Positions 42,959-43,474 are shown, counted from the first letter of the stretch. The stretch: 45,413 nucleotides of DNA from a virus (IMGVR_UViG_2522572021_000012); one strand, 5' to 3'. The notes: generated by a model from the letters alone, not told the origin. Made by a program: numbers and translations.

Positions 42959-43474
42959 ATGGCGTTAACACACCGCGAACTCTGTCAGATTGCGTATAAG
43001 TTCCTTAAGCGCAACGGGTTCAAGGTTTGTTTTCATGACCGCTTTATAGCTGTAACCAGTACCGGAGAACAGCCAGATGCTATGGGATTCAGAAATTCAG
43101 CATCATGCCTGATAGAGGCGAAGTGTTCTCGTGCTGACTTGTTGGCAGATAGAAAAAAGCGTTTTCGTAAAAATCCATCTCTTGGAATGGGCGACTGGCG
43201 ATTCTTTATTAGTGAGCCGGGAATTATTTCAGTTGAGGATTTACCACCTGGCTGGGGATTACTTCACGTTGTTAACGGAAGAGTACGGAAAGTACATGGG
43301 TGGCCCAAGGGTAATTGCTGTTGGGGTAATCCTGACGATAAGCCATTTACTGGAAATAAGCAGGTTGAATGCGATTACATGTTATCTGCATTAAGGCGCA
43401 TGGAGTTGAGAGGGCACCTTAATGAAATATATGACGGTGTAATTGTTAATAAGAAAGAAGGAAACGCGGCATGA
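42959..43474 (+). CDS. PD-(D/E)xK nuclease-like protein
   Basis: Start at MALTHRELCQ within ORF 42887-43474, AAGGAG RBS; motif EQPD...(13 aa)...IEAK read directly. Confidence 0.5.
   Translation: MALTHRELCQIAYKFLKRNGFKVCFHDRFIAVTSTGEQPDAMGFRNSASCLIEAKCSRADLLADRKKRFRKNPSLGMGDWRFFISEPGIISVEDLPPGWGLLHVVNGRVRKVHGWPKGNCCWGNPDDKPFTGNKQVECDYMLSALRRMELRGHLNEIYDGVIVNKKEGNAA

Follow-up and report, generated by a model that had tools for sequence, protein, structure and literature searches.

The putative nuclease gene and its predicted catalytic core

We analysed a viral sequence of 45,413 nucleotides (IMGVR_UViG_2522572021_000012; the window, meaning the whole stretch of DNA), which is a lambdoid prophage of the Shiga-toxin (Stx) type, and within it a plus-strand gene at 42959..43474, stop included, whose product of 171 aa we place among remote relatives of the MmcB-like nucleases. 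A reading made from the nucleotide sequence alone (the sequence-only reading) had taken this product for a PD-(D/E)xK nuclease-like protein, and the predicted fold and the invariance of the proposed catalytic residues now bear that description out. The gene call draws on the list of open reading frames (ORFs), the sequence itself, matches to PHROG families, homologues, the ratio of nonsynonymous to synonymous substitution rates (dN/dS) and an AlphaFold2 model. The reading frame is intact, running from an ATG at 42959 through 171 codons to a stop. A Shine-Dalgarno sequence, AAGGAG (42947..42952, plus strand), ends 6 nt before that ATG, and the start is also supported by the N-termini of homologues. 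A longer version of 195 aa from a GTG at 42887 was considered and rejected, given that homologues from other genera begin with M-A-L-T-H at the ATG and given the position of the ribosome-binding site. The protein is basic, with an isoelectric point (pI) of 9.26 and 27 lysines and arginines versus 19 aspartates and glutamates.

The gene is tightly packed between its neighbours. The TGA of the small ORF upstream lies at 42955-42957, leaving 1 nt before the nuclease ATG, and at the other end the nuclease stop and the start of a DUF551 gene share an ATGA (43471..43474, plus strand, read from the sequence), an overlap that suggests translational coupling of the two genes. Overall, the nuclease gene appears to be translationally coupled both to the small ORF upstream and to the DUF551 gene downstream.

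RefSeq records of this locus treat the gene differently. The Prokaryotic Genome Annotation Pipeline (PGAP) labels the ORF a "frameshifted" pseudogene and covers its first 179 nt only (5001-5179 in locus L001, 4001-4179 in L082, both equivalent to window 42959-43137), and the two records are 100% identical to the window, with the ORF open for 171 codons. The frame is open over its full length and conserved across genera, and the pseudogene call is apparently an artefact of annotation, one that conceals the protein in RefSeq.

The sequence-only reading had singled out EQPD followed 13 residues later by IEAK, and both were found where it had seen them: E37-Q-P-D40 (43067-43078) and I52-E53-A-K55 (43112-43123) delimit the core codons (43067..43123, plus strand), with 13 residues from D40 to E53, an assignment that draws on conservation, on the register with PF06319 and structure 3dnx, and on the strands of the model. 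After E-x-K comes a signature helix, S57-R58-x-D60-(F/L)61-x-x-D64-x-K66-K67 (43127..43159, plus strand), recognised from conservation and from hhalign columns. The second half of the core, conserved in homologues, consists of G76-M-G-D-W-R81-F (strand beta-4) and L95-P96-x-G-W-G-L-L102 (beta-5; 43184..43264 in all, plus strand).

A bare PD...(D/E)xK motif is weak evidence and not beyond chance, because shuffled sequences and other segments of the window contain it as well. Among shuffles of the nuclease protein, D-x(8-25)-[DE]-x-K occurred in 59%, PD...[DE]xK in 6% and ExxD...[DE]xK in 2.4%; of the window's 121 stop-free segments with a length of 100 aa or more, 9 had the PD version. The weight comes instead from conservation and fold. 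Conservation was read from three alignments: A1, with 34 homologues at 59-88% identity; A2, with 50 homologues at 33-56% identity; and A5, which joins the window protein to four homologues from phages and two MmcB proteins. Lack of conservation in homologues, which the sequence-only reading had named as the finding that would count against it, was not observed. E37, D40, E53, K55, D60, D64 and K67 were invariant in A1, as were the blocks G-M-G-D-W-R-F and P-x-G-W-G-L-L; in A2, D40, D60, G78 and R81 remained invariant, and E37, P39, E53, K55, S57, F61, D64, K67 and R70 were at least 90% conserved. Across A5, which reaches from phages of E. coli and Vibrio and from Kuttervirus to the MmcB proteins of Sinorhizobium and Sphingomonas, E53, K55, S57, D60, D64, R81, P96 and P129 were invariant, and D40 was kept in every sequence whose N-terminus is present. 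The median pairwise dN/dS was 0.065 (156 pairs), and the gene is thus real and under strong purifying selection.

Predicted fold and family placement

An AlphaFold2 model built with a 34-sequence alignment reached a predicted local distance difference test score (pLDDT) of 84 and a predicted template modelling score (pTM) of 0.79. Its elements are a helix at 5-18, strands at 23-26, 41-45 and 48-54, a helix at 58-64, a strand at 80-85, two more strands and a long C-terminal helix at 134-150. The motif has the canonical PD-(D/E)xK layout, with D40 ahead of beta-2 and E53-x-K55 at the end of beta-3, so that the beta-strand context predicted for the motif by the sequence-only reading takes the form of two adjacent strands in the model. 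As modelled, the protein has the alpha-beta-beta-beta-alpha-beta core of restriction endonucleases and, with its catalytic residues, belongs to the PD-(D/E)xK superfamily. Structure neighbours in BFVD include viral proteins named MmcB-like. As a caveat on family placement, Foldseek found no significant match in the PDB, and 3dnx was absent from its list. A phmmer search of PDB sequences gave noise only.

The window protein falls in PHROG 9263 (2.6e-123) and PHROG 631 (1.4e-94), both of unknown function, and has a weak match to PHROG 5429, "DNA repair protein" (E=0.0023). Profiles point further. The close-homologue profile (A1) met 3dnx at E=0.16, placed exactly on the catalytic core, and the diverse profile (A2) met it at E=9.1e-5 with hmmsearch. 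In hhalign comparisons, PF06319 fragments were matched at 97.2% (E=3e-11, 72 columns) and two full-length PF06319 proteins at 95.6% (E=1.2e-8, 83 columns); these full-length controls came from annotated plasmid records and scored 265 and 129 bits against a Pfam gathering score of 22 bits. With the close-homologue profile the match was 91.7% (E=7.7e-7) over 100 columns, residues 35-150, reaching the C-terminal helix. The catalytic D and E-x-K stood in register with the PF06319 proteins and with 3dnx in these alignments. The signature E-x-K-x-S-R-x-D-F-x-x-D-x-K is present, as I-E-A-K-C-S-R-A-D-L-L-A-D-R-K-K in the window and with the same pattern in alignment A3, and the G-M-G-D-W-R-F / P-x-G-W-G-L-L region aligned to "CDRxF...P-E-x-G-L" of PF06319. 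The gathering score of PF06319 (22 bits) was not reached by any of these phage proteins: the window protein had no match, and 13 of the 50 A2 members had sub-threshold ones (best E=2.9e-4). On our reading of these comparisons, the phage proteins probably form a large sister clade of the MmcB-like/DUF1052 family (PF06319, COG5321), homologous across the whole domain and lying outside the current Pfam model; the sequence-only reading had been unable to name a family.

Another branch of the superfamily left a trace in the same searches. An archaeal Hjc-type resolvase of Holliday junctions or branched DNA, cutting intermediates for Erf recombination or before packaging, would account for sub-threshold matches of Pfam Hjc (PF01870) in 28 of the 50 A2 members (best E=1.3e-4) and of AHJR-like models in five, for weak matches of the A2 profile to Hjc chains (E ~0.4-0.6), and for the position of homologues near recombination genes in several phages. 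Profile analysis originally connected COG5321/PF06319 itself with the junction resolvases of archaea (PMC1189080), and because of that connection an echo of Hjc in the sequence is to be expected. The Hjc gathering score of 21.1 bits was not reached in these scans, the protein resembles Hjc only weakly in structure and RusA is already present in the phage, and we regard a resolvase of this type as unlikely. Nor did the protein fall in with a well-characterised phage recombination nuclease, an assignment that the sequence-only reading had held out as one that would count against it; the phage has Erf and RusA of its own, and the product is placed instead as MmcB-like.

Operon, neighbourhoods and distribution

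The sequence-only reading had located the gene in the early-left accessory region, and the gene map agrees, with a cI-type repressor, Erf, Ea22-like genes, the nuclease, DUF551, ASCH and Xis/AlpA following one another on one strand. In coordinates, this plus-strand series comprises the cI-type repressor (32201-32917), the Erf recombination gene (36801-37436), unnamed genes with two Ead/Ea22-like genes (41012-42423), then, immediately ahead of the nuclease, three small basic ORFs that overlap one another (42423-42599, 42596-42772 and 42769-42957; 58, 58 and 62 aa), the nuclease itself, the DUF551 gene (43471-44184; assignment at 2.2e-21), an ASCH-like gene (44420-44725) and, after it, a Xis/AlpA-like gene. 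The ASCH-like gene has no Pfam match in the window, and its counterpart in L001 is annotated as an ASCH-domain gene. On the plus strand between 39500 and 45413 no promoter-like site was found, and nothing resembling a terminator comes before 44727 except a weak 6-pair stem at 43596, which falls within the DUF551 gene. Because of this, and because starts and stops overlap, the nuclease gene belongs to the pL early-left operon as one of its internal genes.

The genes cII, O, DnaB, NinB, Dam, RusA and Q run opposite to the nuclease strand; the nin region, upstream of Q on the minus strand, includes RusA (26151-26546), a Dam-type N6-adenine methyltransferase (27897-28484), NinB (28421-28861) and a calcineurin-like phosphoesterase (25299-26045). 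The recombination module of the prophage is of the Erf type and not lambda Exo/Bet. Two copies of an IS3-family insertion sequence (IS), each with HTH_Tnp_1 and rve ORFs, lie at 34137-35451 (minus strand) and 38041-39351 (plus strand), and in the near-identical RefSeq locus L001 the counterpart of the second interrupts an anti-RecBCD gene. The second and third small ORFs are tandem paralogues: both begin with MKNRKAK, a 21-nt direct repeat (42595-42615 and 42768-42788) marks their starts, and the two share 37% identity (E=5e-10). RefSeq annotates the first and third small ORFs only.

The comparison of gene neighbourhoods that the sequence-only reading had called for was carried out by clustering neighbours across 80 IMG/VR loci, and adjacency of DUF551 and methyltransferase genes was counted over 87 loci. 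Neighbours were variable, with replication and recombination genes recurrent, and the nuclease was always co-directional within strings of small early genes. It stood either beside int/xis or in the nin/replication region (DnaB, replication proteins, NinB, NinG-like), and some of the contigs were of ~100 kb. A DUF551-domain ORF abutted the nuclease, on either side, in 14 of the 87 loci, against a background of ~0.008 per 2 kb, and a fused nuclease-DUF551 protein exists (P0218). Genes for DUF551 and ASCH also recur near the nuclease in E. coli lambdoid phages, on a ~94-kb plasmid and in Vibrio cholerae phage X29, whose nuclease is 56% identical; in L085 they lie at 3660-3977 and 5816-6520. A functional link between the nuclease and DUF551/ASCH is possible on this pattern of co-occurrence.

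Named phages gave a similar picture. The order in Vibrio phage SSP002 is Pol I, helicase, DEAD helicase and the homologue; in Kuttervirus maane it is the homologue, a homing endonuclease and primase; in Vibrio phage X29, an exonuclease is followed at some distance by an RNase T-like gene, DUF551, the homologue, DUF1064, Cro, a RusA-like gene, ASCH, Dam and SSB; and in Vibrio phage D273, NinB is followed at some distance by a methyltransferase, the homologue and an HNH gene. What these contexts share is early genes of DNA replication, recombination and repair, which favours a role in DNA metabolism.

Some of these neighbours would suit an endonuclease that forms half of a pair resembling restriction-modification (R-M) with a nearby methyltransferase, or a homing-type endonuclease that spreads selfishly by cutting sites that lack it. 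Loci L065 and L069 have a C5-methyltransferase gene immediately upstream, and in L055 and L059 one is found within 3-5 genes; a DNA methyltransferase directly precedes the homologue in D273, homing or HNH endonuclease genes adjoin it in Kuttervirus and D273, and its distribution among lambdoid phages is patchy. However, methyltransferase adjacency occurred in only ~5 of the 87 loci. The sole methyltransferase found in the window, Dam (27897-28484), is encoded by the opposite strand at a distance of 15 kb, and the nuclease is flanked not by a methyltransferase, as a type II R-M system would have it, but by small ORFs and DUF551. The protein is also far smaller than typical type II enzymes and carries no recognition domain, and strong purifying selection with stable presence across whole virulent phage families is atypical of homing endonucleases. 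Either version seems very improbable to us.

The gene is widespread. The exact protein occurs on at least 1,000 public contigs, where it is named "hypothetical" or "uncharacterized", and its DNA was present in 931 of 5,426 complete E. coli genomes (~17%), on chromosomes and plasmids. A word-indexed search returned 325 homologues, and an exhaustive profile search returned 3,280 clusters at 50% identity with E<=0.001 (2,472 of them at <=1e-10). Of 50,697 deposited phage records, 643 had a homologue, including many virulent Ackermannviridae and Vibrio siphophages; carriers overall include most Stx-converting phages, P1-type phage-plasmids, and virulent Ackermannviridae and Vibrio phages.

The block of small ORF, nuclease and DUF551 (window 42400-44200) recurs at ~98% identity both in Punavirus P1 / Escherichia phage P1 records (MH422554, MH445380 and MH445381) and on ~94-99 kb E. 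coli plasmids (NZ_AP018798 among them), with 250 plasmid places in the complete genomes. Such sharing indicates an accessory cassette that has probably been exchanged between lambdoid phages and P1-type phage-plasmids.

A gene with this spread, in a moron-like location and on very different vehicles, might serve in genetic conflict, either as a defence or superinfection-exclusion nuclease for the lysogen or as an anti-defence nuclease against a host immune component or signal. Against this, PADLOC-DB v2 (E<=1) gave no hit for the nuclease or for the products of the three small ORFs ahead of it, of the Ea22-like gene and of the DUF551 gene, and a conserved partner sensor or immunity gene was not found. 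The gene has neither a promoter nor a terminator of its own and lies inside the pL operon, which is repressed in the lysogen. It is, moreover, widespread in virulent Ackermannviridae genera and in virulent Vibrio siphophages, beside primase, polymerase and helicase genes, and because homologues occur in strictly lytic phages a function that benefits the lysogen is disfavoured. We judge a conflict role to be quite unlikely.

Remnants of the gene are also common. In Stx1a phage LC645425, an IS3-family element abuts the position equivalent to window 43125 and the segment 36326-43124 is deleted, so that codons 1-55, with the catalytic core, are lost; IS-associated deletions of this type explain the 111-aa remnant cluster P0061 (645 members). 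In Stx2c phage LC645408 a 99.9% identical copy of the element sits at window-equivalent 43953-43957, inside the DUF551 gene, and an origin of the 111-aa remnant from an IS inside the nuclease gene of that phage was set aside as wrong. From these comparisons the IS3-family element is actively remodelling the early-left region of Stx phages. Frameshifted alleles of 144 aa exist elsewhere (P0094 and P0102).

The domain is also shuffled. It occurs behind an Ead/Ea22 N-terminal leader (PF13935) in P0091 and P0103 (Salmonella), and P0218, P0206 and P0136 show further arrangements: the nuclease followed by DUF551 (P0218), followed by a dATP/dGTP pyrophosphohydrolase (PF04447) and, once, placed behind a TniB-like ATPase. 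This fits the idea of a "portable C-terminal domain" proposed for Ea22 proteins (PMC10834534). The fusions to the Ead/Ea22 module could also be expected of a catalytically silent DNA-binding or regulatory protein built on a nuclease fold, like some exo-xis proteins that modulate lysis-lysogeny, and other exo-xis genes (ea22, orf63 and others) do act on developmental decisions (PMC7093339, PMC10789677). Invariance or near-invariance of the catalytic residues over thousands of clusters, including virulent phages that have no lysogeny decision to make, contradicts a silent regulator and leaves it with very little likelihood.

Proposed role and relation to known systems

Taking fold, family and context together, we consider it probable, with moderate confidence, that the gene encodes a Mg2+-dependent, single-domain, basic (pI 9.3) PD-(D/E)xK endonuclease, a remote relative of MmcB that is expressed from pL, acts on particular DNA structures or lesions and aids replication, repair or recombination of phage DNA. 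By reference to the superfamily, D40 and E53 would bind the metal ion and K55 would position the attacking water as a general-base partner. A nucleic-acid-binding surface could be formed by helix 57-67 (S57, R58, D60, D64 and K66/K67), R81 and the basic C-terminal helix (K134, R146 and R147). Judging by gene order, transcription within the pL operon would have the protein made early in infection and again after SOS-triggered prophage induction, and incision of structured or lesion-bearing DNA may then aid phage replication, repair or recombination in a way that is helpful but dispensable. The analogy is with Caulobacter MmcB, which has been proposed to cut damaged DNA so that translesion synthesis can proceed; we infer that pL expression after SOS-driven cleavage of the repressor may parallel the SOS regulation of MmcB.

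Several observations weigh against this interpretation. Scans of the window protein with Pfam, NCBIfam (E<=10) and PADLOC (E<=1) gave zero matches, and, since these direct models are silent, family membership rests on remote-homology methods, which make it probable. Among the 80 clustered viral loci there was no obligate partner gene, and with such variable neighbourhoods the context signal is a general one, of the kind "DNA metabolism / early accessory". The phage already has Erf, RusA and NinB, so an extra step for the nuclease is not obvious. Finally, the gene is dispensable for prophage maintenance and not essential, because it is lost in a common IS-mediated deletion allele and disrupted in frameshifted alleles. 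A functional study of the gene was not found in the literature.

A narrower version would make the protein a dedicated "damage-rescue" enzyme, expressed from pL on SOS induction and incising crosslinked or blocked phage or host DNA so that replication restarts, possibly with the DUF551 and ASCH proteins that recur beside it or fused to it. We hold this version to be rather unlikely. If it were true, the nuclease would be a determinant of Stx-phage yield, and hence of toxin output, after genotoxic induction. Mitomycin C is the classic inducer of Stx phages, and a mitomycin C phenotype is known for Caulobacter MmcB only; placement near MmcB makes it worth asking whether yields of phage and toxin after such induction depend on the nuclease. 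The same placement provides a biochemical assignment open to testing for a common gene that is annotated "hypothetical" everywhere, for PHROGs 9263 and 631 and for more than 3,000 clusters, and it extends a poorly understood family from alphaproteobacterial chromosomes into phages.

The primary MmcB paper is reportedly that of Lopes-Kulishev et al. (2015) in DNA Repair. The MmcB-like/DUF1052 family (PF06319, COG5321) includes Caulobacter crescentus MmcB and structure 3dnx (SPO1766 of Ruegeria/Silicibacter pomeroyi). In Caulobacter, cells need MmcB, a PD-(D/E)XK endonuclease under SOS control, to tolerate mitomycin C and cisplatin (PMC9578287), and the enzyme is hypothesised to act with translesion synthesis on crosslinks (PMC9578287; 10.1101/2022.06.10.495655). 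For COG5321/PF06319 an active nuclease has been predicted, with archaeal junction resolvases as its relatives (PMC1189080, PMC3424549). Compared with MmcB, the phage clade carries five additional residues within the K-K-x-F-R-x-x-P-x-x-G-M-G-D-W segment, and a second insertion, of ~10 residues (W-P-x-G-N-x-x-W...K-P-F-x-x-N-K-Q), precedes its last helix. In the window protein P39 stands in front of D40 and E37 is conserved, at a site where MmcB reads R-(A/V)-D. The phage clade resides on phages of Enterobacteria, Vibrio and others, whereas the MmcB family resides on alphaproteobacterial chromosomes. Archaeal Hjc (PF01870) and AHJR-like nucleases have the superfamily in common with the window protein and are of similar size. 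Chemistry, fold and nearest family were thus already known, and the anatomy has no unprecedented part, so that the system is not of a new type. The novelty lies in the placement of PHROGs 9263 and 631, which carried no functional annotation and are here supplied with a predicted fold and a probable family in the MmcB-like branch, together with the recurrent link to DUF551.
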